A stretch of 26,385 nt of DNA from a virus (IMGVR_UViG_2909309443_000009), one strand, 5' to 3'. Shown: positions 1,476 to 26,385, numbered from the stretch's first letter. Notes: generated by a model from the letters alone, not told the origin. Made by a program: numbers and translations.

Positions 1476-2345
<870 letters not shown>

Positions 2346-2957: not shown

Positions 2958-2983
2958 GGTAGATCTCCCTGACAAAAGCAGGA

Positions 2984-4472: not shown

Positions 4473-4487
4473 ATCAATACCCCACCG

Positions 4488-4808: not shown

Positions 4809-4834
4809 TCCTGCTTTTACCTGGGGGATCTACC

Positions 4835-5389: not shown

Positions 5390-5860
5390 AACCGTAGCAT
5401 GTCGTATGCAAGATTGTGCGCGGTTGGCTGGTGAACTTTCGATAGTGCGAGTATTGAATGATTTCCAGCCGTTATCGATTTTATGTATTTTTTGCATGAG
5501 AGGATTTCCATCACCTCCCACCGGCCATCTATGACTTTACGCCACTGTCCCTAGGACTACTATGTACTAGGAGCGGATGTTAAACTCAGACTCGTTTCAG
5601 CTACATTGCGTTTTGAATAATATTCCATCATAATAACTCTTTGAAAAATGTAACCTTTTCATTTATAACACTTATGACTTACTTATCTCATTGGGATATC
5701 GGAGGCGAATACTTAACTATGACAAGCCCGATTATTATGACGCTGGCGATATTATATAGATTGATATTAAAATGTAGGATTAGGTTCTTGCCAAGGTGTC
5801 AAGATTTACAGATAGGTTTAAAACCATATAAATATGTTTTACGGTGAGATGTAATAATTA

Positions 5861-5888
5861 TTGGAAAGCATAAACGCTTGGTAAAAAT
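5861..5888 (+). promoter_or_regulatory. Candidate sigma70 promoter for the large NTPase gene
   Basis: TTGGAA - 16 bp - TAAAAA about 25 bp upstream of the RBS GGGAGAAG; by-eye call only. Confidence 0.25.
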
Positions 5889-5911
5889 TTAATTGTTGGG
5901 AGAAGCTAATC

Positions 5912-10366: not shown

Positions 10367-10749
10367 AAATGAATCTCAGAGCTGAATATATAAGTAGTAT
10401 TAGAAACCGGGTTATACTTAAGAAATCAATCTTAAGTGTGGCAGTCGAATGGTAGCTAATATGCTAGCGGCGCTAATGCCTGTTTGTTGCTCATAACAGG
10501 CATTCACTTTAGTTATGGCAGAAAAGTATACATGCTGGGTTGGGAAAGTGTGAAAGAAAGGAAGATTGCTGCGCCGTTTGTCGTCACGTTTATCTTCATT
10601 GGCTATGCAAGTCGTAATAAAAGGTGGGACAAAACTGAGACACATAAAGCCTCGCAATGGCTTGCAAGGCTTTACATGTTTTGATGTGGTGGGACGTGTG
10701 AGCGCAGTGTTGATGGGGTAATGCTTTGAATTAGAAGCGGATTCTTATA

Positions 10750-10795
10750 ATTCGTAATGCGAAGGTCGTAGGTTCGACTCCTATTATCGGCACCA
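10750..10795 (+). other. 3' 46-nt fragment of tRNA-Thr (thrW-like, anticodon CGU): att core, not an intact tRNA
   Basis: ATTCGTAATGCGAAGGTCGTAGGTTCGACTCCTATTATCGGCACCA; upstream sequence is not tRNA-like. Confidence 0.75.
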
Positions 10796-10809
10796 TTTAA
10801 ATCAATAAG

Positions 10810-11587
10810 TTACCTCACATTTAAGTAAACTACGTTCTCCTCTTGTGCCGTATTTGTGCCATTGCGACTTATAATCGCATCGATTTTGCTCGCGTGCTCG
10901 GTGAGATGCCCGGCTGAAAGGTGGGCGTATCTTTGAACCATTTCGAGAGTTTCCCATCCTCCCATCTCTTTAAGTGCAAGAAGAGAGACACCGGACTGAA
11001 CCAGCCAGCTTGCCCAGGTATGCCTCAGATCATGGAAGCGGAAGTTGCTAATGCCTGCCCGCTTTAACGCTCCCTTCCATGCCTTGTTGCTGTCGGTTCT
11101 CATTTTCCTTACCGCTGCTGTTTTTGTTCCGTCGCTTCGGTAGGCAGGTTTGGTGTGGACAAATACCCATCTCTTATGGAGCCCCTGCTGTTTTCTTAAT
11201 ATCTGGCATGCGGTTTCGTTAAGAGGAACTCCAATCGCATTGCCAGCTTTTGTTTCATCAGGGTGCATCCATGCCATTTTCTTATCCAGATCGACCTGTG
11301 ACCACTCAAGGTCTGTAACGTTGGAACGGCGAAGGCCTGTCGTGATTGCAAACATGACCACAGGGAAGAAGTGAGGAGCAATTTCTGCAAACAGGCGCTT
11401 CGATTCCTCCTCTGTAAGCCATCTGATTCGTCCATTCTTAACGCGTGGTGTTGATATTTTGGGCGCCCTGTCAAGCCATCCCCATTCAACAGCCATATTG
11501 AGAATAGCGCGAAGTATTGCCAGATGCCGCGTCTTCGTTCCTTTGCTTGCCAGCTTTGGTTTATACTCCGGCACTGGCTTGCCAAGC
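10810..11587 (-). pseudogene. int: Tyrosine integrase, C-terminal ~255 codons, separated from its upstream part by IS66 insertion
   Basis: Catalytic motifs [13 protein letters not shown] and RYAHL present; aligns to residues ~130-387 of the intact integrase at 22883-24046; reading frame continues through the target duplication into the IS. Confidence 0.75.
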
Positions 11588-11617
11588 GTAAGCGACTCGT
11601 CAGAACCGTATTGATAT

Positions 11618-13189
11618 TTACTGAGAGCTCAGATCAACTTTCCAGGGCAACAGATCGCGTACCCGGTTTGCCGGCCAGTCCTGGATATGTTCAATGACGT
11701 AACGCAGCCACTTTTCTGACTCCACATTGTTCAGACGGCATGTGCCGATCAGCGAGTACAACACCGCCGCATGTTCACCACCGCTGTCGGAACCCGCGAA
11801 CATCCAGTTTTTCCGGCCTACGGCCACTCCCCGTAAGGCGTTCTCTGCGATGTTGTTGTCGATTTCCACCCAGCCATTACTGCAGTACACGTTCAGTGCA
11901 TCCCACTGTTTCAGCAGGTATGCGAACGCTTTTGCCGTATCTGAGTGACGCGACAGTGTTTTCATCTGTTGCTGTATCCAGTCATACAGTGACTGCATCA
12001 GTGGCGCGGCTCTGGCTTTTCTTGCCGCCAGACGCTGTTCTGCTGAACAGCCCCGGACCTCTGCCTCGATGGCATACAGTTCACCGATACGCTGCAGGGC
12101 TTCCGTGGTGATGTAGGTGGGCGCTCTTGCATGCACATCGTGGATTTTTCTCCGGACATGAGCCATACACGCGGCTTCCGTTATTCTGCCGGATTCGTAT
12201 AACGCCCGGTAACCACCGTAAGCATCGGCCTGAAGCACACCGCTGTAACCGGCCAGGTGATTTTGTGGATGGATACCTTTCCGGTCCGGACTGTACGCGA
12301 ACCAGACCGCCGGGGGCATCTGTGAACCGGCGTTACGGTCATCACGGACGTAGACCCACAGCCGGGCTGTCCGGGTTTTACCGCTGCCCGGCTCCTGGAC
12401 CGGGACGGGGATATCATCAGCATGGACTTTACCGGGCATCAGCACATACTGGCGCAGGACGTCATACAGCGGCTCCAGCAGTTCAGCAACAGCACCTGTC
12501 CAGCGCCCCAGTGTGGCACGGCTCAGCTCCACGCCCTGACGACGGTATATTTCTGACTGGCGGTATAACGGCAGATGGTCTGCATATTTCCCGGTGACAA
12601 CATGGGCCAGAAGCCCCGCTCCGGCATAACTGCGTGCAATGGGTTTTGAAGGTACTGGTGCCTGCACGATATGGTCGCACCGGCAACAGGCCTGTTTCGG
12701 ACGTTGTGTTTCGATAACCTTAAAGGCGCTGCTGATAAGCTCCAGTTGCTCTGACACATCACATCCCAGAGAACTGAGTTCACCACCACAGGCAGGACAG
12801 CATTCCTCTTCCGGCCGGATAACCCGGGTTTCACGGGGAAGTGAGGCCGGTAACGGTTTACGGGCTGAAGACTGGCGCAGGGGGGATGGCAGTACCGGGT
12901 CATATTGCTCACCCAGCGTTTCTGCCATTTCTTCCTGAAGTGCGCTGATTCGCTCCTGTGCTTCCTGTATCTGCCGTTCGGTTTTTGCGCGAAGTTTTTC
13001 TGAGCTTTTACCGAACTGCATACGTTGCAGTTTCGCAACCAGCGCCTTCAGCCGGTTGATTTCGGAAGCATAAGCCGCCACCCGCTGTGAGAGCAGGCGG
13101 TTGTATTCAGCCATCTGGCGTATGGTGTCCTGTTGCGTCTGCAACAGTGCCCGCAGGCGGGCGTTCTCATGAGCAAGTGAGGTGTCCAT
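11618..13189 (-). CDS. tnpC: IS66-family transposase TnpC
   Basis: 523-aa ORF with N-terminal coiled-coil/leucine-zipper-like region and Cys-rich segment typical of IS66 TnpC. Confidence 0.8.
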
Positions 13190-13208
13190 ATCCTCACTTT
13201 ACAACGGG

Positions 13209-13556
13209 TTATATGCGGATTCCAGCGCGTTCCGTTCGTTTCGGGTGCTTCCAGTTGATACCTTCAAGAAGCATGGATAACTGAGCCGGAGTAAGGTGCA
13301 CCTTGCCGTCACGGGTGACTGGCCAGACGAAGCGGCCCCGCTCCAGGCGTTTGGTGAAGAGGCACAGTCCGTCACTGTCAGCCCACAACACTTTTATCTG
13401 GTCACCCCGGCGTCCGCGGAAGATGAACAGGTGTCCGGAGAACGGGTCATCCTTCAGGACGTTCTGAACTTTTGATGCCAGGCCGTTAAAGCCATTTCGC
13501 ATATCGGTGATACCTGCAACCAGCCAGATACGCGAACCTGCAGGGAGAGATATCAT
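13209..13556 (-). CDS. tnpB: IS66-family accessory protein TnpB (Orf2)
   Basis: 115-aa ORF MISLPAGSRIWLVAGITDMRNGFNGL... immediately upstream of tnpC. Confidence 0.75.
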   Translation of the reverse strand: MISLPAGSRIWLVAGITDMRNGFNGLASKVQNVLKDDPFSGHLFIFRGRRGDQIKVLWADSDGLCLFTKRLERGRFVWPVTRDGKVHLTPAQLSMLLEGINWKHPKRTERAGIRI

Positions 13557-13680
13557 CAGTGGCTGCTCCCTTTTATTTCGCGGATAAGTGTCTGTAATAA
13601 CGCCGGCGTCAGTTTACCTTTAAGCCTGAGAGTTCCGGCCGGCAGAACCAGCTCACAACACAGACTGTCGGACGGTGTAT

Positions 13681-14232
13681 TTATCTGCTCTGGTTCCTGT
13701 GCGGGGCCGGGATTTTATTATCCGGCTCCGGCGTTAACGTCACGGGAAGCAGTGCCGGCATATTTTTTCCGGAAGGCAGCAGGCCACCTTTCCGGTATTG
13801 ATGGCGCCAGTTGAAGAGCAGGTTATCGTTGATTCCGTTTTCCCGGGCGATCTGCGCCACACAGGCTCCGGGCTGCAGTGACTGCTCCACTAAGGCGATT
13901 TTAAACTCATAAGGGAAGTTGGGCCGCCGGGGACGTTTTTTTACCACGGGGGCTTCGGATATAACGGTGCTTTCAGGACGTACGACTGGTATCGTGGAAA
14001 ATTGTCCGTAAAGGCAGGCATCAAGTTCCTGCTCCGACATGCCTGCGGGCAAAGGCCACGAAAGGCCAGCTCTCCGAAAGCGCACGAACATACTACAAAC
14101 TGTTGATTTTGGTACACCCAGGCGACGCCCGGCCACAACCCGGGGTAAATGTTCTTCAAAGTGAAGACGTAAAGCTTCAGTGATCCAGGTCCGGTGTTTC
14201 ATACGATAGTGTCCATTAAAAATGATGGACAT
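13681..14232 (-). CDS. tnpA: IS66-family accessory protein TnpA (Orf1), HTH-containing; N-terminal extent uncertain
   Basis: C-terminal part RPRRPNFPYEFKIALVEQSLQPGACVAQIARENGINDNLLFNWRHQYR is a transposase-type HTH; 124-bp gap before tnpB is atypical. Confidence 0.55.
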   Translation of the reverse strand: MSIIFNGHYRMKHRTWITEALRLHFEEHLPRVVAGRRLGVPKSTVCSMFVRFRRAGLSWPLPAGMSEQELDACLYGQFSTIPVVRPESTVISEAPVVKKRPRRPNFPYEFKIALVEQSLQPGACVAQIARENGINDNLLFNWRHQYRKGGLLPSGKNMPALLPVTLTPEPDNKIPAPHRNQSR

Positions 14233-14353
14233 TATTTTTGTAGAGCCGGAGGAAACAGACCAGACGGTTTAAATGAGCCGGTTACTGCCAAGCCGCAAAC
14301 ACCTGTCCCGGCTCATTTCCCAGTTCAGGCGATGGCGGCGGTTTTCCATCCCG

Positions 14354-14563
14354 TCTATCCGGAGGAAACAACACGATCTCCACTGAAGCAGGTGCCGACG
14401 TTGGTTTCGGCAGACGACGTAACTGCTCAACTATTGCTGCGCACGCCGCGCTCTGGAATTTTCGCCCCGCCGCGCTTATCAGGCTCTTACCAGCAAACGC
14501 CCCTTTGTTGGGGTGTCGCCAGTACGTGTTCACGCTGGGCGGAAAAGGCAGGATCAGCTTCAT
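14354..14563 (-). pseudogene. RusA-like Holliday-junction resolvase, N-terminal ~70 codons only, fused to an integrase fragment
   Basis: MKLILPFPPSVNTYWRH...VEIVLFPPDRR resembles the RusA N-terminus; homology stops near 14350, where another frame (14294-14350) encodes MENRRHRLNWEMSRDRCLRLGKPV matching the integrase. Confidence 0.55.
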
Positions 14564-14886
14564 ACTTTCAGGTCCCTCTCATGTAACCAGTGGGTTGCAC
14601 GCAGCCTTGCGTTTTCCTCACCGGCAAGCAGTGCGCGGATAATCCCGACCGCCTCGCTGTCGTCGTCCTTCACCGCGGTATGAAGCGTTATCCCCCGGGC
14701 CACGCCACGCTTTATCGTGATGACGCCTTTTTTCTCCAGTGCGCGAAGATGCTCCACCGCTGCATTCACCGAACGGTATCCCAGCATGGTTGCCACCTCC
14801 TGATTGGTTGGCGGGAAGCCACGTTCTTTCTGATAAGAAATCAGCATATCCAGCACCTGCTGCTGGCATTGAGTTAACGTCGTCAT
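14560..14886 (-). CDS. LexA-like winged-helix DNA-binding protein lacking the S24 peptidase domain
   Basis: QQQVLDMLISYQKERGFPPTNQEVATMLGYRSVNAAVEHLRALEKKGVI closely parallels the LexA N-terminal DNA-binding domain; 108 aa total; 4-nt overlap with upstream gene. Confidence 0.6.
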   Translation of the reverse strand: MTTLTQCQQQVLDMLISYQKERGFPPTNQEVATMLGYRSVNAAVEHLRALEKKGVITIKRGVARGITLHTAVKDDDSEAVGIIRALLAGEENARLRATHWLHERDLKV

Positions 14887-15536
14887 GCCGCCATCTCCCT
14901 GACCAGTTTTTCCGCCTGCTGGCGAACCTGCGCCAGAAACGCCTCACCACATGCCTCAAGTTCATCGCGCCCGATGTAGCTGATTGCCGGTCCCTTCCAG
15001 GTCTTGTCAAAAACAGCAATAGCACCAGCGAAAAAAGCTCCTGTCGGTACCTGCTTCTCGTCTTTCGGGATAAACCAGACAGGCAGTTCAAAACCAATAC
15101 GCCCGCGAATAAAAGCAATATGATCTGCATCTTCCGGCCACCACACTTCGCTGGTGGCAGCTTTGATCAGGAAAACATAGCGCCCGCCCTTATCACGCAT
15201 GGCACTGGCATGTTTCATGATGTAACGCATGCCGGTGATGTATTGCCCCTCATGCTGACTGGCGCGGCTGTATGGGGGATTACCAAAGGCAGCACCTTTA
15301 AGCTCCGCAAGACGTTCTGACCAGTCATGCGCCAGCGCGTTGTCTTCCGCCGTGTAATACGCGGCACATTTGGCGTTATCACCGTCAGTGAACAGATCCA
15401 GAACAAACGGGCCAAACAGGGTGTTAATTCCCCAGAAAATGTTGTCCGGCGTGCGCCACTGATCGCCCACTTCCTTCAGTTCATGGGCTGGTTTGTTCCG
15501 CAGTTCCACCAGCGCCTGGCAATATTTATTACTCAT
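14883..15536 (-). CDS. Phage-type DNA N6-adenine methyltransferase
   Basis: NPPY catalytic motif (AAFGNPPYSRA); start ATG at 15534-15536 overlaps the upstream stop (translational coupling). Confidence 0.7.
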   Translation of the reverse strand: MSNKYCQALVELRNKPAHELKEVGDQWRTPDNIFWGINTLFGPFVLDLFTDGDNAKCAAYYTAEDNALAHDWSERLAELKGAAFGNPPYSRASQHEGQYITGMRYIMKHASAMRDKGGRYVFLIKAATSEVWWPEDADHIAFIRGRIGFELPVWFIPKDEKQVPTGAFFAGAIAVFDKTWKGPAISYIGRDELEACGEAFLAQVRQQAEKLVREMAA

Positions 15537-16030
15537 TAAGCCCCCACGTAATTCCCTGACAGATACCACTCTTCACCCGATGCAGCGCGCTTGCTGCTTT
15601 TCCGTAAGCACCGCTCACGACGCGTCAGAAAATTGTTTCGTTCTGGCTGGGAGTGGCTTTCACGGAATGCCGCCATCCACACGGTTGCAGCACGACGGTA
15701 TAAGCCCCTGGACTCCAGTTCTTCCGCCTGGCGGGTCAGGCACAAAATCACACGGGGATCGTTAGTGCCGACATAGAAATTGCGCACAGGTCTGGTTTCA
15801 CGAACTGGTTGTGGTTCCGGTTCCTGCGCTCTCTCAGTCAGGCGCGGGAAATGTCTGCGTGTATCTCCTTCACAACGGTGAGCCACACGCCCACTCTGAC
15901 GTAACTTGCTTGCTGACTGCAGAACGCGCTGCCGTGAGTAACCGGCAAAAGCATCCGCAATATCTCCGGAAGTACAGCCCGGATGGGCTTCAATGAATTT
16001 CTGAACGTCATTCAAAAGACTCATGCTCAC
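15536..16030 (-). CDS. Prophage regulatory protein with PerC-like C-terminal motif
   Basis: AEELESRGLYRRAATVWMAAF resembles the PerC/Pch signature; N-terminal winged-helix-like region; ATGA overlap with O-like gene. Confidence 0.4.
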   Translation of the reverse strand: MSMSLLNDVQKFIEAHPGCTSGDIADAFAGYSRQRVLQSASKLRQSGRVAHRCEGDTRRHFPRLTERAQEPEPQPVRETRPVRNFYVGTNDPRVILCLTRQAEELESRGLYRRAATVWMAAFRESHSQPERNNFLTRRERCLRKSSKRAASGEEWYLSGNYVGA

Positions 16031-16968
16031 CCCCTGAATCCTGCCGGGATCTGGCTGTAGTCCACGTTGTCGTAACTGGCTTTGAAGTACGGGTCTTCGC
16101 GTTTTTCGGTGTACGTGCTGACGGACGGCGATAAGCGCAGGGAAAGCTCATCCCATTTTTCCCGCAGCTTCGACGGGCTGAGCACGTTACGGCACCAGAA
16201 CGGATCGCGACTGACGCGGCTGTACATCTCGCAGATTTGTTTATGAGTACGACCATCCTGCACACACATCAGGCGAATTTCGTTTGCCCAGGCTGTCCAG
16301 TTCGGTTCTTTGGGACGAACCACCTCGCCGTCACATTCGGCGGCCTGCTCGTACAGGGCGATGATTTTTTTCCAGAGCCACTGTGCGCAGGTCAAATCAT
16401 CCTGCGTTCCCCACTGGCGCTTTTTAGGGCTGAATACAACCGCATCAGGATGGCGAGTTAAAAACTCCTGTTCAGCCGTCTGCGTGTCCGGTTGCGAAGC
16501 GTCCGGACGAGAAGTTTTTTTATCTGACGGATCATGTTTTGATTTTACTGACGGATCCCCGCCAGATTCTGACGGGTGAAAACCCGCTTTTTTGCCAGAT
16601 TTCGACGCATCAAATTTTGACGGGTCAGATTTTGATGCGTCAGATTTTGACGGGTCAGAATCTGACAGTTGAGAAAATGCCGCTGCCTGAAGCTTCGCAA
16701 CGTTAAGCTGATAAACATTCGACGCATTGCGGTTACCCTGGCGACGCGCCTTACGCGTTAACCAGCCTTCTGCTTCCAGCCGTGCGATAGCCGTTCTGAC
16801 GGTACTCATCCCCGCGCCAATCTGACGGGCAATGGTTTCAATTGATGGCCAGCACACACCTTCGTCATTACTGAAATCAGCCAGGCGGGCCATAATTGCC
16901 ACGCTGGATAATTTCATGCCTGACGCTGCGCAACCATCCCATACATAGCCGGTTAATTTAGTGCTCAT
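16027..16968 (-). CDS. Lambdoid replication initiator (O-like) with internal origin iterons
   Basis: N-terminal HTH (MSTVRTAIARLEAEGWLTRK); central low-complexity SDSDPSKSDASKSDPSKFDASKS encoded by tandem DNA repeats; position after the CII-like gene. Confidence 0.65.
   Translation of the reverse strand: MSTKLTGYVWDGCAASGMKLSSVAIMARLADFSNDEGVCWPSIETIARQIGAGMSTVRTAIARLEAEGWLTRKARRQGNRNASNVYQLNVAKLQAAAFSQLSDSDPSKSDASKSDPSKFDASKSGKKAGFHPSESGGDPSVKSKHDPSDKKTSRPDASQPDTQTAEQEFLTRHPDAVVFSPKKRQWGTQDDLTCAQWLWKKIIALYEQAAECDGEVVRPKEPNWTAWANEIRLMCVQDGRTHKQICEMYSRVSRDPFWCRNVLSPSKLREKWDELSLRLSPSVSTYTEKREDPYFKASYDNVDYSQIPAGFRG
16524..16668. repeat. Iteron array (about 8 tandem ~15-bp repeats, GATTTTGACGGGTCA / GATTTTGATGCGTCA) inside the O-like gene: putative prophage replication origin
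   Basis: Direct repeats read in sequence at 16524-16668. Confidence 0.6.
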
Positions 16969-16977
16969 GACCGACCT

Positions 16978-17316
16978 CTATTTCCCTGAATTTACGACGA
17001 AACTGTTCGAGCGGACTGAAGCACTCATGCTCATAGCCTTCGCGGAGGTAGATAACCCGTTGTGTTTCCGGTTCCCAACGAATGACTCTGACGGGCACTC
17101 CGTAGTGATCTTTGAACCAGCGGTTAACTTGTCGCAAAGGACTGTCTCCTTCTGCCGGTTGAAATCACCCACAGCCCACTCTGCAAAGCTGTGGGTTACA
17201 ATTTCCCTGTCACCTGGTACATTTACTGCATAGCAATACTCCACCTTCGCTTTTCCACCCGGTACAGGAAGCGCAATCAGTTGCGAGCGACGGTAGTGTG
17301 TTGTTAAACTGTTCAT
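16978..17316 (-). CDS. Hypothetical prophage protein
   Basis: 112-aa ORF whose start overlaps the stop of the CII-like gene (ATGA), consistent with a coupled operon. Confidence 0.4.
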
Positions 17317-17864
17317 GCGTTAGTTTCTCCACAGTCACGACACGCCACGGCGCCCGGAGCTGCACACTCGCGGGCGTCATTACTTTCTGAAATGCAAAAG
17401 ATTTTGTAGACCAGTGCTGCATGCTCCTGCAGCTTCGAAATTGAGAGATATAGCTCGTCGTTAATTGCAGTTTTCTCATGCGGTTCCACTACACCGTCTT
17501 CGATTGCTGAACGAATCTGTTTTGAATAACTGCCGATCTGTTCAATGACCTCCAGCAGGCGTTGGTTGATATCGGCGTTGTCCACATCCTCGACATCAGG
17601 AAGAGACACAAAGACGCCATTTGCAGACTGCGCCACAGCGTCAGCAATGAAGTGAGTTCCACCAGCACGTTGCAAAATCATTGCCCATCCCAGCGGGAAA
17701 ATCTGATCGCCATCGGCACGAAGGCGGTTAAATAATGCGTTCTCTGTTACATCCAGCCAGTCAGCAGCTTCAGCGTACCCCCCCGGCAACGCTGCGATAG
17801 TTTTTCTGACAGCTTTCACGTACCACTCAGGCTGTTTTTCTACTTTCCAGTGATGCTTACCCAC
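17313..17864 (-). CDS. CII-like / YdaT-family prophage regulatory protein
   Basis: 183-aa ORF immediately downstream of cro in the early-right operon; family assignment by position and general resemblance only. Confidence 0.45.
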
Positions 17865-18117
17865 GGTTCACCTCCTGTTCCTGTGGTTTAAACCCATTCT
17901 GGTTTTGGCTAGATTGAAAACGTGCCGGATAAAGAATCTGCATTTCGCTGACTTCACCCTTAAAAAAATTGGCTAAACGTTCTGCAAGCTCGATAGATGG
18001 AATCTGCTCCAGCCTCTCAATACGACTCAACGTCGCTGGATTGACTTGAACACCCGCAGCAACATGCTGCAAAGTGAAACCATGCGCCTTACGCACATTT
18101 CGTAATGGTGATTGCAT
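17857..18117 (-). CDS. cro: Cro-like HTH (XRE-family) regulator
   Basis: 86 aa, HTH GFTLQHVAAGVQVNPATLSRIERLEQ; divergent from the cI-type repressor across an operator region. Confidence 0.7.
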   Translation of the reverse strand: MQSPLRNVRKAHGFTLQHVAAGVQVNPATLSRIERLEQIPSIELAERLANFFKGEVSEMQILYPARFQSSQNQNGFKPQEQEVNRG

Positions 18118-18214
18118 ACGCCCTCCAAATATTGCGCGTTATGCATGTTATTTCACGCAATTATTTTGCGCAAGTTGATTTGCTTATCACGCAATAAAGA
18201 AATGTAATAAACGC
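18118..18214. promoter_or_regulatory. Divergent immunity promoter/operator region (OR-like) between cro and cI
   Basis: Repeated TCACGCAAT / TTGCGC(A/G) motifs (18132-18137, 18153-18161, 18166-18171, 18187-18196) in the 97-bp gap between divergent HTH regulator genes. Confidence 0.5.
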
Positions 18215-18907
18215 ATGAACATAGGAAACCGAGTCAGACAACTTCGCCAAGCGAAGAACATGAAAATCGCCGATCTCGCTGAAGCGATAGGAGTAGATGC
18301 GGCGAACATCTCGCGCTTAGAAACGGGTAAGCAAAAACAATTTACCGAACAAACACTGAGTAATATTGCCAAGAGCTTAGGTGTTGATATTGCTGATCTC
18401 TTTACCTCTGCCCACAAAAGTAATACTGTATATAAAAACAGTAATAATGAGGATGTTGCGCAGGTGAAGGATGTGTTCCGTATTGAAATGCTGGATATCA
18501 GTGCCAGTGCGGGAAATGGCCTTATCCAGGGCGGTGATGTCATTGATGTGATTCATGCCATCGAATACAGAACTGATAATGCTGTATCAATGTTCGGCGG
18601 ACGACCAGCCAATCACATCAAAGTTATCAACGTTCGTGGGGACAGTATGTGTCCAACCATTGAGCCCGGAGATCTCATCTTCGTTGATGTCAGCATCAAT
18701 CAGTTTGATGGTGATGGTATATATGTCTTTGGTTTTGATGACAAAATATACGTTAAAAGACTTCAAATGATTCCTGACAAACTGCTGGTGATTTCTGATA
18801 ACCAGATTTACCGTGAATGGGGAATTACTAGCGAAAACGAACACCGATTCATGGTCTTTGGAAAGGTCTTAATCAGTCAGTCGCAAACCCTTAAGAGACA
18901 TAATTAA
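18215..18907 (+). CDS. cI-type prophage repressor (XRE HTH + S24 LexA-like peptidase domain)
   Basis: N-terminal HTH (MKIADLAEAIGVDAANISRLETGKQ) and C-terminal S24 domain (INVRGDSMCPTIEPGDLIFVD ... KRL). Confidence 0.85.
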   Translation: MNIGNRVRQLRQAKNMKIADLAEAIGVDAANISRLETGKQKQFTEQTLSNIAKSLGVDIADLFTSAHKSNTVYKNSNNEDVAQVKDVFRIEMLDISASAGNGLIQGGDVIDVIHAIEYRTDNAVSMFGGRPANHIKVINVRGDSMCPTIEPGDLIFVDVSINQFDGDGIYVFGFDDKIYVKRLQMIPDKLLVISDNQIYREWGITSENEHRFMVFGKVLISQSQTLKRHN

Positions 18908-18927
18908 CCTCAATATCCCATCCATCG

Positions 18928-18948
18928 GCCACCGAAAGGTGGCTTTTT
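18928..18948 (+). terminator. Rho-independent terminator downstream of the repressor gene
   Basis: GCCACC-GAAA-GGTGGC hairpin followed by TTTTT. Confidence 0.65.
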
Positions 18949-18961
18949 ATTACCTATAAAT

Positions 18962-19001
18962 TTGCATATCTCGCAAATATCACTTGCATGTCTCGCAATT
19001 T
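18962..19001. promoter_or_regulatory. Two 17-bp direct repeats (TTGCATATCTCGCAAAT / TTGCATGTCTCGCAATT): OL-like operator candidates
   Basis: Share the core CTCGCAA(T/A) with the OR repeats (TCACGCAAT); located downstream of cI, upstream of the rightward (pL-like) genes. Confidence 0.4.
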
Positions 19002-19184
19002 AATTTTATCTTTTGTTCCAGACCAACTACAGGATTACAACAAAATCTGGTTGCAACACGGTGCATGTGTCGTAAGCAGTCAGTAAATGTCAAAAACGAA
19101 CAGGCAGGACGCCCACGAAGTAGCCGCCTGGGGCATATGAAGTCCAGGATGATTCGTTGAGTCATGTTGTGCCACTAGGCACTC

Positions 19185-19481
19185 ATGTTAAAGCAGGTGT
19201 ATGAAATGAAAGTCCAGATTTTAAACAATAACTGTGAAGTCGTTTGGTCATACGACATAGCCGCCCCTGTAGATCAGAGCGGCGATAGCTGGACCAATGG
19301 GAAACATCAGATTATGGCTGGAGTTGTGTTCTCTTTACGCCGTGCTTTGGAACAGGCTGAAGTATTTCCATCAGACCCTGAATGGAAATGGCCTTTTTCT
19401 ATTTGTCCAAATTCGGAGAGCACATTTCAGAAAATTGGTCAGAAAGTCGCACTCGAAGAGCATCAGCCAACTGTTTCCTGA
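19185..19481 (+). CDS. Hypothetical prophage early-left protein
   Basis: 98-aa ORF with RBS (GCAGGTG) before ATG; no recognisable motif. Confidence 0.35.
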   Translation: MLKQVYEMKVQILNNNCEVVWSYDIAAPVDQSGDSWTNGKHQIMAGVVFSLRRALEQAEVFPSDPEWKWPFSICPNSESTFQKIGQKVALEEHQPTVS

Positions 19482-19644
19482 TTTTTTCAGGTAACTCGTC
19501 GGCATCGCAGAAACAACAACGCTCGATCATGTTGAAAGCCGATTCGTAGAACTGTTTCTGCTGAGTGTCGCTGAGACAGGAAAAGAGCGACGTTACGATG
19601 ATTTTATTAATTGCATTATCAAGTTCTTTTTCATCAAAAGTCAT
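19399..19644 (-). CDS. Hypothetical small protein (81 aa)
   Basis: Good RBS (AAAAGGAAAATC-ATG) on the minus strand; Cys-containing; overlaps the 3' end of 19185-19481. Confidence 0.4.
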   Translation of the reverse strand: MTFDEKELDNAINKIIVTSLFSCLSDTQQKQFYESAFNMIERCCFCDADELPEKIRKQLADALRVRLSDQFSEMCSPNLDK

Positions 19645-19897
19645 TTGATTTTCCTTTTATGTATACGGGCTTAAAAGGATACCACCGAGCCTGAAGTGGT
19701 GAAAAGACAGGCACATAACAGCTAAGTATTTTCAACCAAAGAGAATCCTTAGCGTTGTGGTGAATGCGGCTCAGCGCACGCGGGTTAAGGTTGAGGCTGA
19801 CAGTCGACCTTCTGTGGATACCCACCCGTCTGGTGTGCAACCTTCGCCAGGCACCGGGAGGCACCCGGCACCACAACTTTATGCTGTGTGTAGTCCT

Positions 19898-19944
19898 GGC
19901 GGTACCAGTTTGTACCCTTGCTTCCGGCTGGTACCGTCCTTTTT
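19898..19944 (+). terminator. Rho-independent terminator-like hairpin within a GC-rich structured region
   Basis: GGCGGTACCAG ... CTGGTACCGTC 11-bp stem followed by CTTTTT. Confidence 0.5.
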
Positions 19945-20081
19945 ACAAAACAGAGAAGAGCATCACCGGACGACGGGCTCATAACCCAATCCATCCGGGC
20001 GGCTGCCACCGCAGGTGTTCTTCTCTGTTTTGTGGAGAAACTAATCGGCCTTGCAGGGTCGATATGATGAGGAGCAGCAAA

Positions 20082-20444
20082 ATGGCTAGCGAACGCAGTA
20101 CTGATGTGCAGGCATTTATCGGGGAGCTGGACGGCGGCGTATTTGAAACCAAAATCGGCGCAGTTCTCAGTGAAGTCGCTTCCGGTGTGATGAACACGAA
20201 AACCAAAGGTAAGGTCTCACTCAACCTGGAAATCGAACCATTTGATGAGAACCGTGTGAAAATCAAACACAAACTCTCATATGTTCGCCCGACTAACCGC
20301 GGGAAAATTTCCGAAGAAGACACCACCGAAACGCCGATGTATGTCAATCGCGGTGGTCGCCTGACTATTCTGCAGGAAGACCAGGGACAATTACTGACTC
20401 TTGCCGGTGAACCTGACGGAAAACTCCGCGCAGCAGGTCATTAA
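20082..20444 (+). CDS. Hypothetical prophage protein (120 aa)
   Basis: ATG at 20082 preceded by RBS GAGGAG; the longer ORF-track extension upstream crosses a structured non-coding region and is probably spurious. Confidence 0.5.
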   Translation: MASERSTDVQAFIGELDGGVFETKIGAVLSEVASGVMNTKTKGKVSLNLEIEPFDENRVKIKHKLSYVRPTNRGKISEEDTTETPMYVNRGGRLTILQEDQGQLLTLAGEPDGKLRAAGH

Positions 20445-20509
20445 TATCGTTCTTAATTAACTGATTATTTATCTCATCACTGAATATCTTTATATAGTGA
20501 GGACTTATT

Positions 20510-21334
20510 ATGTCTCAGAACTTAGACGCAACCGCAATTAATCAAATCCATGCCCTTATTTCTGCTCAGGGTGTTAATGAAATTATCAGTAAGATTGGTG
20601 CCGATGCTGTGGCATTGCCTGAGAATTTCCGCATTCATGATCTGGAAAAATTTAATTTAAATCGCTTCCGTTTCCGTGGTGCGCTTTCCACTGCCAGCAT
20701 CGATGACTTTACCCGTTATTCTAAAGATCTTGCAGATGAAGGCACCCGCTGCTTTATCGATGCTGATAATATGCGTGCCGTCAGTGTGCTTAACCTGGGT
20801 ACTATTGATGAACCAGGTCACGCAGATAACACCGCCACTCTCAAACTGAAAAAGACAGCACCGTTCTCTGCTCTGTTGTCTGTTAATGGCGAGCGTAACT
20901 CCCAGAAATCACTGGCAGAATGGATTGAAGACTGGGCCGACTACCTTGTGGGCTTTGATGCTAATGGTGACACCATTCAGGCAACAAAAGCGGCTGCGGC
21001 GGTCCGTAAAATCACGATTGAAGCAAACCAGACCGCTGATTTTGAAGATAATGACTTCAGCGGCAAACGCTCCCTGATGGAGTCTGTCGAAGCGAAGACC
21101 AAAGACATTATGCCAGTGGCATTTGAATTTAAATGCATTCCGTTTGAAGGTCTGAAAGAACGTCCGTTTAAATTACGCCTCAGCATTATCACTGGCGATC
21201 GTCCGGTACTGGTTCTGCGCATTATTCAGCTGGAGGCGGTGCAGGAAGAAATGGCTAACGAATTTCGTGATCTGCTTGTTGAGAAATTCAAGGACAGCAA
21301 AGTAGAAACCTTTATTGGTACTTTCACCGCCTGA
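20510..21334 (+). CDS. YfdQ-like (DUF2303-type) prophage protein
   Basis: 274 aa; length and gene order (followed by 178-, 120- and 101-aa genes) match my recollection of the yfdQRST block of E. coli CPS-53-type prophages. Confidence 0.5.
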
Positions 21335-21461
21335 TTTCATTACTGCAAATGCCCCTGCGGGGGCATTTATGGAAACGTAATTTACTCAATAATCGCCGGA
21401 TGGTGAGGGATTCTTTTTACCAGAATTCAGCGCGGTGCAGCGCATATACGTGGAGAACAAA

Positions 21462-21998
21462 ATGTCATTTATTAAAACTTTTTCCGGGAAGCATTTTTAT
21501 TATGACAGGATAAATAAAGACGACATCGATATTAACGATATCGCGGTTTCCCTTTCAAATATCTGTCGCTTTGCCGGTCATCTTTCGCACTTCTACAGCG
21601 TCGCCCAACATGCGGTTCTTTGCAGCCAGCTGGTGCCGCAGGAATTTGCTTTTGAAGCGTTAATGCATGATGCAACAGAAGCGTATTGCCAGGACATTCC
21701 CGCACCACTGAAACGCCTTCTTCCTGACTATAAACAAATGGAAGAAAAAATAGACTCCGTAATCCGTGAGAAATACGGATTACCCCCAGTTATGAGTACG
21801 CCCGTGAAATATGCCGATCTCATCATGCTGGCAACCGAACGCCGCGATCTCGGGCTTGATGATGGCTCTTTCTGGCCTGTACTGGAAGGTATCCCGGCAA
21901 CAGAGATGTTCAACGTGATTCCACTGGCACCGGGCCATGCCTACGGGATGTTTATGGAACGCTTTAACGAGTTATCGGAGTTACGCAAATGCGCATGA
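21462..21998 (+). CDS. HD-domain phosphohydrolase (YfdR-like 5'-deoxynucleotidase)
   Basis: HD motif (HFYSVAQHAV ... LMHDATEAY); ATG at 21462 with RBS GGAG; 178 aa. Confidence 0.65.
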   Translation: MSFIKTFSGKHFYYDRINKDDIDINDIAVSLSNICRFAGHLSHFYSVAQHAVLCSQLVPQEFAFEALMHDATEAYCQDIPAPLKRLLPDYKQMEEKIDSVIREKYGLPPVMSTPVKYADLIMLATERRDLGLDDGSFWPVLEGIPATEMFNVIPLAPGHAYGMFMERFNELSELRKCA

Positions 21999-22351
21999 AT
22001 GTTTTCGAAATGGAAGGGTTTCTTCGTGGGAGATGTGTACCGCGAGATCTGAAAGTAAATGAAACAGATGCTGAATACCTGGTGCGTAAATTCGATGCGC
22101 TTGAAGCTAAATGTGCAGCACAGGAAAACAAAGTAATACCAGTGTCAACTGAACTGCCACCAGCAAATGAAAGTGTTTTGTTATTCGATGCTAACGGAGA
22201 AGGCTGGCTAATTGGCTGGCGTTCTCTCTGGTACACCTGGGGACAAAAAGAAACCGGAGAATGGCAGTGGACATTTCAGGTCGGGGACCTTGAAAACGTC
22301 AATATCACTCACTGGGCAGTAATGCCAAAAGCACCGGAGGCTGGAGCATAA
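21989..22351 (+). CDS. Hypothetical prophage protein (YfdS-like)
   Basis: 120-aa ORF, overlapping coupling with neighbours. Confidence 0.45.
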   Translation: MRMNVFEMEGFLRGRCVPRDLKVNETDAEYLVRKFDALEAKCAAQENKVIPVSTELPPANESVLLFDANGEGWLIGWRSLWYTWGQKETGEWQWTFQVGDLENVNITHWAVMPKAPEAGA

Positions 22352-22656
22352 TGACCACTTTTACCGACAAAGAACTGATTAAAGAAATTAAAGAGCGTAT
22401 CAGCAGCCTTGACGTGCGAGACGATATTGAGCGCCGTGCTTATGAAATCGCACTCCTATCTCTGGAAGTAGAACCAGATGAACGCGAAGCTTATGAATTA
22501 TTCATGGAAAAGCGTTTCGGTGACTTAGTAGATCGTCGGAGAGCAAAAAACGGCGATAACGAATACATGGAATGGGATATGACTCTCGGTTGGATCGTCT
22601 GGCAGCAACGAGCTGGTATCCATTTTTCAACAATGTCACAGCAAGAGGTGAAATAA
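22351..22656 (+). CDS. Hypothetical prophage protein (YfdT-like)
   Basis: 101-aa ORF; stop overlaps the xis start (TAATG). Confidence 0.45.
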   Translation: MTTFTDKELIKEIKERISSLDVRDDIERRAYEIALLSLEVEPDEREAYELFMEKRFGDLVDRRRAKNGDNEYMEWDMTLGWIVWQQRAGIHFSTMSQQEVK

Positions 22657-23006
22657 TGGAGCCATACAGCCTCACACTCGATGAGGCCTGTCATTTTCTC
22701 AAGATATCCAGACCGACTGCCATTAACTGGATACGCACAGGGCGTCTTCAGGCAACACGCAAAGATCCCACTAAGAATAAATCTCCTTACCTCACAACAC
22801 GACAAGCCTGCATTGCGGCTCTTCAGTCTCCGCTGCATACTGTCCAGGTGAGCGCGGGTGATGGCATAACAGAGGAAAGAAAATGTCACTCTTCCGCAGA
22901 GGTGAAATATGGTACGCCAGTTTCACATTGCCGAACGGTAAAAGATTTAAACAGTCTCTTGGAACAAAGGACAAAAGGCAGGCGACAGAACTCCATGACA
23001 AGCTAA
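22656..23006 (+). CDS. xis: Excisionase (AlpA/Xis-type HTH); 3' extent uncertain
   Basis: [36 protein letters not shown] typical of excisionases; RBS GAGGTG; in-frame ORF runs to 23006, overlapping the int start at 22883. Confidence 0.5.
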
Positions 23007-24046
23007 AGGCTGAAGCATGGCGGGTCAGCAAACTTGGTGAAATACCTGATATAACGTTCGAGGAAGCGTGTGTCAGGTGGCTTGAAGAGAAAGCACATAA
23101 AAAATCACTGGACGATGACAAAAGCCGGATCGGATTCTGGCTTCAACATTTCGCAGGAATGCAACTAAGAGACATTACTGAATCAAAAATTTATTCAGCA
23201 ATGCAGAAAATGACGAACCGGCGTCATGAGGAAAACTGGAAACTCAGGGCAGAAGCATGCAGAAAAAAAGGGAAACCTGTTCCAGAATACACGCCAAAAC
23301 CAGCGTCCGTTGCAACGAAGGCTACGCATCTTTCATTTATAAAGGCCCTACTAAGAGCCGCAGAGCGTGAATGGAAAATGCTGGATAAGGCACCAATTAT
23401 TAAAGTGCCTCAACCAAAGAATAAACGGATCCGCTGGCTGGAGCCCCATGAAGCACAAAGGCTGATTGATGAATGTCCGGAGCCATTAAAGTCTGTTGTT
23501 GAATTTGCACTGGCAACAGGCTTAAGACGCTCGAACATCATCAACCTTGAATGGCAACAAATAGATATGCAGCGCCGGGTGGCATGGATAAACCCGGAAG
23601 AGAGTAAATCAAACCGCGCAATCGGCGTTGCGCTGAATGATACTGCATGTCGCGTTTTGAAAAAACAAATCGGGAATCATCACCGTTGGGTATTTGTGTA
23701 CAAGGAAAGCTGTACCAAACCAGACGGAACGAAAGCGCCAACAGTAAGGAAGATGCGGTATGACGCAAACACAGCCTGGAAAGCAGCGCTGAGACGGGCT
23801 GGTATTGATGATTTCAGATTTCACGACTTGAGACACACCTGGGCAAGTTGGCTGGTTCAAGCCGGAGTCCCGTTGTCAGTGTTACAGGAAATGGGAGGCT
23901 GGGAGTCTATCGAAATGGTTCGTCGATATGCTCACCTTGCACCTAATCACCTTACCGAACACGCACGGCAAATAGACTCGATCCTGAACCCATCGGTCCC
24001 AAATTCGTCCCAGTCAAAAAATAAGGAAGGTACTAATGATGTGTAA
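22883..24046 (+). CDS. int: Lambdoid tyrosine integrase (intact)
   Basis: 387 aa; RBS AGGAAAG; catalytic R...HxxR...Y motifs ([24 protein letters not shown]); ends 14 bp before the att core. Confidence 0.9.
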
Positions 24047-24060
24047 CTTATTGATTTAAA

Positions 24061-24109
24061 TGGTGCCGATAATAGGAGTCGAACCTACGACCTTCGCATT
24101 ACGAATGCG
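24061..24109 (-). other. 3' 49-nt fragment of tRNA-Thr (thrW-like) in inverted orientation: second att core
   Basis: TGGTGCCGATAATAGGAGTCGAACCTACGACCTTCGCATTACGAATGCG; the 14-bp spacer to the integrase stop (CTTATTGATTTAAA) is identical to the spacer at 10796-10809. Confidence 0.75.
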
Positions 24110-24197
24110 TAAATTGATCTTGTAAAATCAATACCTATCGAATTTAAATGGATTTTTTGCCACAATATTGCCACAGTTCGTTAGGAATCAGACAGAA

Positions 24198-25271
24198 ATG
24201 GCGACTATACGCAAACGTGGTAACTACCAATGGGAAGCTCAAATCCGTAAACGTGGTTTTCCCTCTCAAACCAAAACCTTTAACACCAAAGTAGAAGCAG
24301 AAGCTTGGGCCAAAATGATCGAGTCAGAAATGGCGAGAGGAGTTTGGCTTAGCCGCAGCGAAGCGGAATCTACGACATTGTATGAAGCCCTAACGCGATA
24401 TGAAAAAGAGATTGTTCCCGACAAAAAAGGGGCAGTGCAAGACCGATCATTGGTGCGGATACTAAAAGGCACTCAGCTGGCGAAAAACTATATGGCCAGC
24501 ATCAGGAGTGCCGATGTCGCCAAGCTGAGAGATGAATGGTTGAAAATCTATGCTCCTGCAACCGTTTTAAGGCGTTTGGCCTTACTTTCTCATGTATTCA
24601 ATGTTTCGCGGAAAGAATGGGGCATGGAGAGCCTGCTGAACCCCGTAGAGGCCATTCGTAAACCCCAACCCAAGAACTCCAGGACCAGACGCCTAGAAGC
24701 GCTGCCTGTAGTTTCTGAGAAAACCGGTGTTACGTCAGGAAAGCAAATAGCCAACGAGATCGAACATATCATCGCCGCAACACATTCATTAGTATTGCCA
24801 GCAATCATTCTTCTGGCGTTAGAGACAGCCATGCGCCGTAGCGAAATCGCAGAGCTTCGATGGCGCTTTATCGATCTTGATCGGCGAGTTGCACATCTGC
24901 CGGATACTAAGAATGGTAATGCCCGCGATGTCCCTTTATCAACGAAAGCCATTACGATACTGTCCAGTCTCAAGGAACATTCTAAGCCAGCTGCTGATAA
25001 GGTTTTTGATATGCGTGCAGACGCGATTACCCGAGCTTTTGACCGAGCTGTAAAACGAGCCAGAGAACGATACGAGAAAACAAACTCATTATGTGATGAA
25101 TCTTTCCTTAAAGATTTAAGATTTCATGACCTTCGACATGAAGCAACTTCTCGACTTGCTGAAATTTTCCCTATGCATGAACTAACCAAAATTACAGGAC
25201 ATAAAGATCCAAGAATGCTAATGCGGTATTATCATCCAAAAGCTGAAGATTTGGCGTTAAAGTTGAAATAA
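24198..25271 (+). CDS. Tyrosine site-specific recombinase / island integrase (second family)
   Basis: MATIRKRGNYQWEAQIRKRGF N-terminus typical of island integrases; catalytic LRFHDLRHEATSRL and MRYYH; ATG 24198 with RBS AGGA. Confidence 0.8.
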   Translation: MATIRKRGNYQWEAQIRKRGFPSQTKTFNTKVEAEAWAKMIESEMARGVWLSRSEAESTTLYEALTRYEKEIVPDKKGAVQDRSLVRILKGTQLAKNYMASIRSADVAKLRDEWLKIYAPATVLRRLALLSHVFNVSRKEWGMESLLNPVEAIRKPQPKNSRTRRLEALPVVSEKTGVTSGKQIANEIEHIIAATHSLVLPAIILLALETAMRRSEIAELRWRFIDLDRRVAHLPDTKNGNARDVPLSTKAITILSSLKEHSKPAADKVFDMRADAITRAFDRAVKRARERYEKTNSLCDESFLKDLRFHDLRHEATSRLAEIFPMHELTKITGHKDPRMLMRYYHPKAEDLALKLK

Positions 25272-25280
25272 GGACGTTGT

Positions 25281-26171
25281 ATGGATTATAAAAATAAGTT
25301 AGTTGATGCATCACCAAAATTAAACAACCCTCAACTATTGGCTATAATATACTTAATACCTTTTGGATACTTGATTGTAGAAAACCCATTATGGCTAGAA
25401 AATATATACATTGCCGCTCCAATTTTCCTATCATCTATAGCTTTATTAACCAGTGTATACATAGGATATCGTGATTTATTAAATAAAGTATTTAATAATG
25501 CAGTAGTTAAATGGGGCGTAACTGGCTTTACATATTCCGTATGCTTATGGATCGCAAAGTTTAAGCTTGACATAGCTTATGGTATAGTCCCAGAAAACCT
25601 TAATTACTCGACATTAGCTTATGCTTTCATGCTCTCATTTCCAATAGGGGCAATGATTTGTGCAATTACAGTCTATATATACATATTTTTGCGAGATGTA
25701 TCCCCAGCAAAAATAGTAATATCCTCTATGATTTCAGTATATATTGGAAGCTTGGCTCAACATCATATACAGATGAACAATCTTCCTGAAAAAATAATAT
25801 TAATAGGACTTATAATTATGGTCCCCTATAACATGGTCAATTTAGCTAGTTCATTAGTTATTAAAAGGAAATTTAATTTTAATCGTTTAGTATCAGGCTT
25901 ATCCCTTTTTGCTGTGTCAGTTGCTCTTTTTATTATTAGCATGACAGCAATGAAATACATTGAAAGATTTCAAGAAAAGTTTATTTTTCTCGATGCAAGA
26001 ACATCTACGACATGTGGTAGCTCAGAAAGCAAATCTCTTTATATTGAAAAAAATGAAAATCAGTGTTATAAAATATCAGGAAATAAATTCTCGGAGTTAA
26101 GACTAACTCTTGTAGATAAAAACATCTTGAATATAAATAATAAAGGCACTTCAACTTATGAACAAAAATAA
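25281..26171 (+). CDS. AT-rich polytopic membrane protein (about 7 predicted TM helices), unknown function
   Basis: 296 aa with multiple ~20-residue hydrophobic stretches; strongly AT-rich; immediately downstream of the integrase. Confidence 0.5.
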   Translation: MDYKNKLVDASPKLNNPQLLAIIYLIPFGYLIVENPLWLENIYIAAPIFLSSIALLTSVYIGYRDLLNKVFNNAVVKWGVTGFTYSVCLWIAKFKLDIAYGIVPENLNYSTLAYAFMLSFPIGAMICAITVYIYIFLRDVSPAKIVISSMISVYIGSLAQHHIQMNNLPEKIILIGLIIMVPYNMVNLASSLVIKRKFNFNRLVSGLSLFAVSVALFIISMTAMKYIERFQEKFIFLDARTSTTCGSSESKSLYIEKNENQCYKISGNKFSELRLTLVDKNILNINNKGTSTYEQK

Positions 26172-26385
26172 CCCTGCTAATTCATTTTCTATAGAAGCAA
26201 GGAAAGAAGCTTTTCGGAGAGCTGAAGCCAGTCTTTTTTTATCAAGTAAAGATCCCAAAGGCTCCTCATTTTTTAATGAAATAAAAACTAAGGTAATCAA
26301 TGGAGAGCTAACCTATGAAGAGGCAAAGAGAGAAGTATTAAATTATCACATTGAACAATCTAAAAATCAAAATAAAAGAGGCTAA
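26158..26385 (+). CDS. Small helical protein resembling VbhA-type antitoxins of Fic-family toxins (tentative)
   Basis: 75 aa; EARKEAFRRAEASLFLS ... INGELTYEEAKREVL pattern; overlaps the upstream gene end; stop codon is the last triplet of the window. Confidence 0.3.
   Translation: MNKNNPANSFSIEARKEAFRRAEASLFLSSKDPKGSSFFNEIKTKVINGELTYEEAKREVLNYHIEQSKNQNKRG

Follow-up and report, generated by a model that had tools for sequence, protein, structure and literature searches.

A mirror-image pair of integrase modules at thrW

We analyzed a 26,385-nt stretch of DNA from the viral sequence IMGVR_UViG_2909309443_000009 (the window, always meant at its full length), in which two phage integrase genes, each abutting a copy of the same attachment (att) core derived from the tRNA-Thr gene thrW, point outward in mirror image. 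It represents the prophage hotspot at thrW in a lineage of enterotoxigenic Escherichia coli (ETEC), and the mirror-image modules are a case of prophage decay at this integration hotspot and not a new type of element. Positions 9500-25500 are 100% identical to the chromosome of ETEC strain E8. Read in the orientation of the window, E8 carries yagU, paoABCD, yagP', an insertion sequence (IS) fragment of IS3, a gene for an AraC-family regulator, a GIY-YIG gene, the invertase gene pinE (-), a tail-fibre segment, a second pinE (+), the defence gene avs2, the left att core (+), the integrase pseudogene int' (-), IS66, rusA', phage early genes, xis, the integrase gene int1 (+), the right att core (-), a 13.5-kb island, an intact thrW (-), proA and proB.

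A repeat search of the window connected the two cores in a perfect inverted repeat: 10750-10813 and 24043-24106 are 100% complementary over 64 nt, with 13,229 nt between the arms, and the chance origin of such a repeat in 26 kb is essentially impossible. Each arm is made up of a 3' stretch of thrW, the 14-bp spacer TTTAAATCAATAAG, TTA as the reverse complement of an integrase stop codon and one further base; the identity to thrW extends over 46 nt at the left core and 49 nt at the right core. The first-pass annotation had described identical cores, spacers and stop codons at both ends and different sequences on the far sides, and both statements hold. Aligned to each other, core and spacer are the same in both modules, and the outer flanks are unrelated, with a phage P arm on the left and the end of an integrated island on the right. 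The open reading frames (ORFs) beside the cores both encode tyrosine recombinases (PF00589, E = 3e-48 for int1 and 5e-35 for int') that share 55.7% amino-acid identity, in agreement with the earlier view that the integrases are related but not identical. As had also been proposed, no intact thrW lies in the window: ARAGORN found no tRNA gene and Rfam gave no match at the gathering threshold, a complete tRNA-Thr cloverleaf is absent and only the 46-nt and 49-nt 3' fragments of thrW are present. The intact gene follows 13.5 kb past the right core, outside the window.

As the region is rich in inverted repeats (64, 241 and 671 nt), a misjoin of the assembly at repeated att or pin sequences could produce a false mirror image, and the first-pass annotation had named assembly validation as a check. 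A misjoin can be excluded. Positions 9500-24109 form one collinear piece with about 100% identity in no fewer than 17 independent complete ETEC chromosomes, which come from several projects and countries and include the strains TW10598, B2C, 2014EL-1346-6 and FORC_031 and, by record name, the CM1805xx series, CP024232, CP035846, CP035874, CP013190 and LR883050; three of the collinear genomes have an additional insertion of the IS21 family. The target duplication and the empty site of the IS66 element described below are internally consistent as well, and with this independent support an artefact is hardly conceivable. A flip of the 13.2-kb interval between the two 64-nt arms was not found: each of the 17 genomes that span it has the same order as the window.

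The right module is the attL of a resident prophage

The integrase gene of the right module, int1 (22883-24046, + strand), is of the SfIV/SfV/SfII/SfI type, as judged from nucleotide identity to these phages, and intact: it encodes 387 amino acids, compared with 386 for the Int of mEp213, and matches positions 1-171 of the 172 positions of PF00589. It is followed by the spacer and a core of 49 nt of thrW (24047-24109, - strand). Taken over xis, int, spacer and core, the nucleotide identity of the module is 99.6% to SfIV, 99.3% to SfV, 98.7% to SfII, 97.5% to SfI and 80% to P22. The comparison with the thrW locus of closely related genomes, likewise suggested beforehand, placed the same integrase gene next to intact thrW: the island-free genomes E1535, FDAARGOS_1077, LR882050 and ETEC1732 contain the same int and the 14-bp spacer followed directly by the complete tRNA gene. 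In all four the core is the 3' end of the tRNA gene and int is convergent with intact thrW, which is the layout of a tRNA-type attL. As an attL the right module is unremarkable; the prophage to which it belongs is SfV/e14-like and sits in thrW.

In the window, no tRNA sequence adjoins the right core on its far side, and thrW is found only outside, because a 13.5-kb island has integrated into thrW and displaced the 5' part of the tRNA gene. The prophage-island junction is located at 24061-24109. A direct repeat of 49-50 bp from the 3' end of thrW borders the island on both sides, and E1535 and FDAARGOS_1077 lack exactly this insertion.

The remainder of the resident prophage can be traced on both sides of the locus with the complete thrW prophage of LR882050, which has the order yagP', IS3', AraC, GIY-YIG, pinE (-), invertible segment, tail, head, terminase, lysis, Q, rusA, early genes, int1 (+) and thrW (-). 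Window positions 1-3038 are 98.5% identical to LR882050 and positions 14348-24109 about 99%, both in the same orientation as the ends of the LR882050 prophage. The first of these parts contains the gene of the AraC-family regulator (1-744, - strand, PGAP annotation of E8), cargo at the distal end of the resident prophage in its normal orientation, and the second contains the early region (14358-22882), which also has the normal orientation and is collinear at about 99% with the complete thrW prophages in LR882050 and other genomes. The early region comprises rusA' (the N-terminal part of the gene), a methylase gene, replication genes, cro/cI-like genes, yfdP-T and xis. The approximately 27 kb of late genes that LR882050 has in between are replaced in the window by pinE(+)-avs2-P arm-core(+)-int'. 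By this sequence comparison the outer parts of the locus are the two ends of one normally oriented prophage.

The inverted block, its defence cargo and a double pinE cassette

A complete prophage of this family in Z0117EC0040 has core, P arm, avs2 and pinE as its regular distal end, there in the orientation opposite to that of the window. From this orientation and from the ends of LR882050 it follows that the inverted unit is 4755-14357 (pinE-avs2-P arm-core-int') and not the 13-kb interval between the cores. The first-pass annotation had proposed a segment of about 13 kb with outward-pointing integrase-att modules at its ends; the mirrored modules are real, but 14357-24109 is normally oriented and the boundaries of the inverted part have to be moved accordingly.

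The inverted block carries avs2 (5912-10366, + strand), an AVAST type 2 defence gene identified by PADLOC with 1755 bits and by PGAP, as cargo between pinE and the att site. On the other side, beside the left pinE, lies the gene of a GIY-YIG protein (1572-2345, + strand), which is annotated as LEM-3-like GIY-YIG and corresponds to the defence gene PD-T4-3 (PADLOC, 464 bits). Each of the mirrored prophage ends has its defence cargo in the slot between pinE and att, PD-T4-3 at one end and Avs2 at the other. Many E. coli retain only a minimal remnant consisting of thrW, an int fragment, avs2 and attR, for example NCTC9087.

Where the inverted block meets the distal end of the resident prophage, two copies of pinE enclose an invertible segment. 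The left pinE (2439-2993, - strand; Pfam Resolvase, E = 3e-50, HTH_7 match partial) and the right pinE (4799-5389, + strand; Resolvase, E = 2e-51, HTH_7), which is part of the inverted fragment, encode serine invertases of the Din family and lie within an inverted repeat of 671 nt with 95% identity (2373-3043 and 4749-5419). Next to them are two 26-bp pix crossover sites, the left one with the sequence TTTTCATAAATGTTGGTTTGGGAGAA (3012-3037, + strand) and the right one with TTTTCATAAACCTTGGTTTTGGAGAA on the minus strand (4755-4780). Both agree with the crossover consensus of Din-family invertases quoted in PMC4134206; the right site is the proposed joint of the large inversion. The 1.7-kb segment between the sites (3038-4754) holds two C-terminal parts of tail fibres and two assembly genes, and it has a pin gene on either side with no constant tail-fibre gene adjoining.

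Among near-identical sister genomes this segment has the orientation of the window in six cases and is flipped in 12, and the annotated genes of the segment are swapped in E8 compared with E1535. Because both orientations occur at otherwise about 100% identity, the tail-fibre segment still flips. With a serine invertase, inverted 26-bp sites and both orientations seen, it is a Din-family inversion system, in which the activity of the invertase is predicted. The ends of homology lie at the pix sites: homology to single-pin relatives begins at 3024, the centre of the left pix site, and for single-pin prophages of the GIY-YIG type it ends at 4773, within the right pix site, and homology to the avs2-type prophage of Z0117EC0040 starts at 4754. 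We found the double-pinE cassette in 18 genomes, all of this lineage, and in none outside it.

A hybrid att junction and a broken integrase in the left module

The P arm of the left module (10624-10749, + strand) is of the SfIV/SfV type, here called type 1: the sequence from 10625 to 10813, through P arm, core and spacer, matches the SfIV attP region at 97% identity, and the arm differs from those of SfX, HK446 and mEp213. Its usual partner is an integrase of the int1 type. The adjoining core (10750-10795, + strand) consists of the last 46 nt of thrW and is inverted relative to the chromosomal thrW (-). It is followed by the spacer TTTAAATCAATAAG (10796-10809, + strand), with which, by comparison with phage att sites, the P' arm begins. 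SfX, HK446 and all examined attL sites of the SfV type in E. coli have exactly this sequence; SfIV and mEp213 each show a difference of 1 nt, and older remnants differ at 2-3 nt. The identical spacers of the two modules had appeared as a possible sign of local gene conversion, which can be dismissed: because SfX, HK446 and the examined SfV-type attL sites have the same 14 bp, the shared spacer is a trait of the phage family and not the result of local exchange.

In contrast to int1, the integrase gene of the left module is broken. The pseudogene int' is of the SfX/mEp213 type, with 98-99% nucleotide identity to the int genes of SfX, HK446, mEpX2, HK75, HK542, mEp043 and mEp213, and lies on the - strand in a 3' piece (10810-11587) and a 5' piece (14294-14357), the latter delimited by a three-way comparison with mEp213 int and LR882050 rusA. 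When the pieces are rejoined, they encode the C-terminal 279 codons with 99.3% amino-acid identity to residues 108-386 of the mEp213 Int, and the match to positions 2-170 of the 172 positions of PF00589 includes the catalytic domain. Residues 1-107 are missing, and the reading frame is fused to rusA' and interrupted by IS66. At the fusion point (14356-14358) TA are the only bases common to both parents.

The interrupting IS66-family element (11588-14285, - strand, 2698 bp) contains tnpA, tnpB and tnpC with the Pfam domain DDE_Tnp_IS66, has the ends GTAAGCG...GGTTAC, in line with the GTAA...TTAC ends of the family, and is flanked by the 8-bp target duplication TGCCAAGC at 11580-11587 and 14286-14293. 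We considered IS66 as the joint of the rearrangement, which the perfect duplication and an empty site exclude: in FDAARGOS_1077 the IS66 site is empty and int' is already fused to rusA'. Because FDAARGOS_1077 retains the uninterrupted site, IS66 is a later simple insertion.

The two arms of the left module belong to different phage types. The P arm is of the SfIV type, P' and int are of the SfX/mEp213 type, and three of the three int'-type phages that were fetched carry the other P arm, which is not what the attP of a single phage looks like; no sequenced phage unites a P arm of type 1 with an int of the SfX type. Two arms of different elements on either side of an intact core are what a junction in a tandem array of prophages has. 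Such a junction would share the orientation of the tRNA gene and have prophage bodies on both sides, whereas here the core is on the + strand versus thrW on the - strand and the body of the int' prophage is deleted at codon 107. With its composition P(SfIV type)-core-P'(SfX type) the left module is a hybrid junction, inverted together with the pinE-avs2 prophage end, and it looks like the damaged and inverted remains of a site at which two phages adjoined in a tandem array. The two integrase lineages and the inversion of the left module support the first-pass annotation in its statement that simple integration does not produce mirror-image modules and that inversion or recombination between related prophages at thrW has to be assumed. 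An early BLAST result had hinted at an intact mEp213-like attP in the left module; this candidate was rejected, as only a non-collinear 47 bp at 87% are shared and the remaining P arm of mEp213 is unrelated.

GF66.2 has a tandem array in normal orientation that contains the reciprocal hybrid, in which int1 is joined to a P arm of the SfX type (type 2). In this array (L012 1540-1620 and 14650-14920) the reciprocal hybrid has gtr cargo on the side of the P arm, and the other, distal junction retains about 205 bp of an old SfX-like int. GF66.2 shows repeated rounds of integration at the thrW locus. Between avs2 and the left core of the window lies a small annotated ORF of 50 amino acids (10532-10684, hypothetical protein WP_000901952.1), which reaches with its 3' end into the beginning of the P arm. 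This ORF is conserved in all occurrences of the avs2-type attR.

The main rival to a tandem array as the source of this module is the co-integration of a single circular phage equipped with pinE, avs2, a P arm of type 1 and an int of the SfX type. The left module would then be its unrecombined attP. Entry by one crossover inside the invertible segment, in opposite flip states and without the action of Int, would insert the phage upside down, and the same int'-rusA deletion would follow. The module indeed has the anatomy of an attP, with cargo, P arm, core and an int that is directed at the core, the order also seen in mEp213 and SfIV; moreover, the predicted final structure is the same as that reached from a tandem array, and two phages suffice, the resident being exactly of the LR882050 type. 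However, the sequenced phages with this type of int (SfX, HK446 and mEp213) all have the other P arm, and the match of mEp043, mEpX2, HK75 and HK542 to the window begins only at the core. The type-1 P arm and avs2 cargo occur together with an int1-type integrase in Z0117EC0040 and probably in NCTC9087, in the latter with the type judged only by annotation name. Among 5,426 genomes searched, the type-1 P arm joined through the core to this int was absent outside the lineage, apart from a short older remnant of an SfX-like int in six other records. We therefore regard the co-integration of one phage as unlikely, although it deserves more weight than any other alternative discussed here.

A fourth att-like site and the flip of an 11-kb block

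Approximately 0.4-0.6 kb before the start of the window, at E8 L001 5898-6136, there is a fourth att-like site. Its P arm is of type 1, its core has a 1-nt deletion and its spacer has diverged, and beside yagP' it retains 55 bp of an old int of the SfX-like kind. In inverted orientation the site matches 10624-10864 at 94% identity over 241 bp, and the same int remnant flanks ptwF in K-12 and the prophage of LR882050. A reciprocal exchange has flipped the 11-kb block from this site to the left module in FDAARGOS_1077, the sole genome with this isomer. The crossover is confined to an interval of about 84 bp from the last polymorphism of the P arm to the 1-nt deletion of the core, which includes the 5' 39 nt of the core. 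The flip may have been mediated by Int or by homologous recombination, as both fit. In either case, the inverted att-containing repeats are still recombinogenic.

Proposed history of the locus

Based on these data we consider the mirror image to be the scar of a rearrangement between co-resident thrW phages, with tandem integration, an inversion through the tail-fibre modules and a deletion, and we assign this reading a probability of roughly 60%. In a first step, two or three related phages would have been integrated in tandem at thrW by Int, which would have created the hybrid junction P(type 1)-core-int'. Recombination between the Pin-invertible tail-fibre modules of two co-oriented prophages could then have inverted everything in between, either by Pin acting on inverted pix sites or by RecA within segments that were in opposite flip states. 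The products of this second step would be the pinE-segment-pinE cassette, the mirror-oriented pinE-avs2-P-core-int' and a long quasi-palindrome of late genes. An illegitimate deletion at a 2-nt microhomology would subsequently have removed at least about 27 kb and joined codon 107 of int' to rusA. Later, an IS66-family element inserted into int', with its 8-bp duplication, followed in part of the lineage by the 13.5-kb island in thrW. We infer the first three steps and the order of events.

The same tandem array could have been rearranged in a different sequence, with an illegitimate inversion that had its breakpoints in int' and rusA coming first and a deletion between the tail-fibre modules afterward, for example by Pin on directly oriented pix sites. 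The number of events is equal, and the int'/rusA' joint would be explained directly as two left-hand ends joined to each other. On the other hand, rarer events are required: inversions at 2-nt microhomologies are much rarer than deletions, invertases of the Din family such as Gin, Hin and Pin strongly disfavour deletion, and RecA is unable to delete between inverted copies. It is therefore very doubtful that the inversion at int' and rusA came first.

Several points weigh against the proposed path through tandem integration, inversion at the tail-fibre modules and deletion. No genome was found with one of its intermediates, neither the uninverted tandem array nor the quasi-palindrome. A version with two prophages depends on a distal phage with the combination of P arm and int that, as mentioned above, no sequenced phage has, and with matching arms in each phage, three prophages in tandem are required. 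Recombination at the invertible segment by Pin or by RecA gives an indistinguishable product. Furthermore, either isomer of the 11-kb block may be the ancestral one: the form of the window restores both ends of a complete prophage of the known LR882050 type, and the form of FDAARGOS_1077 those of the known Z0117EC0040 type.

A further possibility is that the locus is not a dead scar but a set of nested inversion switches that are still active. If true, these would act on three levels. The flip of the tail-fibre segment is seen directly, and for the 11-kb block with Avs2 and PD-T4-3, which would flip between the inverted att-like sites, both isomers are seen. On the third level, the intact SfV-type Int together with Xis would act on attL and the left module, which has a complete cognate P arm, and would invert the 13-kb early region instead of excising the prophage. 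The prophage would be locked by one inverted att, and programmed inversions driven by Int might alter the expression of the defence genes. We consider this view of the locus quite improbable.

Island and early region

The part of the island that lies in the window (24110-26385, + strand, assigned by the annotation of E8 and Pfam) runs beyond the window end. It carries a tyrosine integrase of its own (24168-25271; PF00589, E = 2e-26), which in E8 is followed by trbL, trbJ and traJ. The island, which extends to L001 44180, also carries an antitoxin of the VbhA family and a gene for a PD-(D/E)XK nuclease, and the same island start is found in Z0117EC0040. PGAP/RefSeq lists a "tRNA-Ser" of 112 nt at 24062-24173 in E8 and Z0117EC0040, where ARAGORN and Rfam find no tRNA. 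As this call spans the partial thrW copy and the end of the island, it looks like an annotation artefact.

Inside the early region, a replication-initiator-like gene (16027-16968) contains four overlapping copies of a 30-nt repeat at a spacing of 15 bp (CAGATTTYGAYGSRT-like units, 16596-16670). By analogy with lambda O these repeats are probably iterons of the replication origin.

Relation to known phages and inversion systems

The closest relatives of the right module are the Shigella flexneri serotype-converting phages SfV, SfIV, SfII and SfI, SfV/e14-like phages of thrW, which share this module (97.5-99.6% at the nucleotide level) and, in the case of the SfIV attP, the type-1 P arm (97%). 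The position of the cargo locus between the tail-fibre genes and the P arm is also the same. In contrast to the gtrABC of these phages, the cargo here is Avs2 or PD-T4-3 together with AraC; in addition, the late genes are deleted and the P arm is inverted and paired with an SfX-type int. The left int', spacer and core have their counterparts in SfX, HK446, HK75, HK542, mEpX2, mEp043 and mEp213 (98-99%), with the difference that only codons 108-386 are left here, fused to rusA and split by IS66, and combined with the other type of P arm. Integrase and attP of P22 at thrW of Salmonella belong to the same integrase family and use the same 3' tRNA-Thr core, but P22 is more distant (80% to the right module), has another host and a different phage body. 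Database records label matching sites as P22-like attP.

The cryptic prophage CP4-6 of K-12 with its distal partial thrW copy ptwF occupies the same locus, between proA-thrW and yagP-paoD, and has beside yagP the same old core, spacer and 55-bp int remnant as the fourth att-like site. However, the ptwF copy is a direct repeat of thrW, and intF is a different integrase whose 5' end faces the repeat. A relation to IntF of CP4-6 was considered and ruled out: the geometry of intF is opposite, and the island integrase has 25% identity to IntF over 171 amino acids.

The tail-fibre cassette resembles those of Pin of e14, Gin of Mu and Cin of P1, with the same kind of invertase next to 26-bp inverted sites that flank alternative fibre ends, and with polymorphic orientation. 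It differs from them by an invertase gene on both sides and by the lack of a constant 5' part of the tail-fibre gene, and a functional fibre can no longer be switched. Tandem polylysogenic arrays at tRNA att sites, including GF66.2, contain the same kind of hybrid junction, P(phage 1)-core-P'(phage 2), whereas in the window one junction is inverted relative to the tRNA gene and the prophage bodies on both sides are deleted. We found no description of this arrangement in the literature. All components (int-att modules of the P22/SfV/SfX type, Din-family cassettes, IS66, and Avs2 and PD-T4-3 as cargo) and all processes are already known, and the locus represents neither a new mechanism nor a new class of element. 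It is a well-resolved case of prophage decay with an unusual double-invertase cassette.

Annotation of related regions calls for some caution, since an integrase beside a partial tRNA gene does not necessarily mark the end of an element and pipelines may miscall such fragments, as in the case of the "tRNA-Ser". For the biology of these bacteria, the locus is a reconstructable example of how a tRNA hotspot gathers phages and then scrambles them by tandem integration, inversion, deletion, IS insertion and island integration. Invertible tail-fibre cassettes can serve in this process as orientation adaptors, through which co-oriented prophages recombine head-to-head. The outcome is a prophage remnant in which the two defence genes, Avs2 and PD-T4-3, have been kept and all structural genes have been lost.

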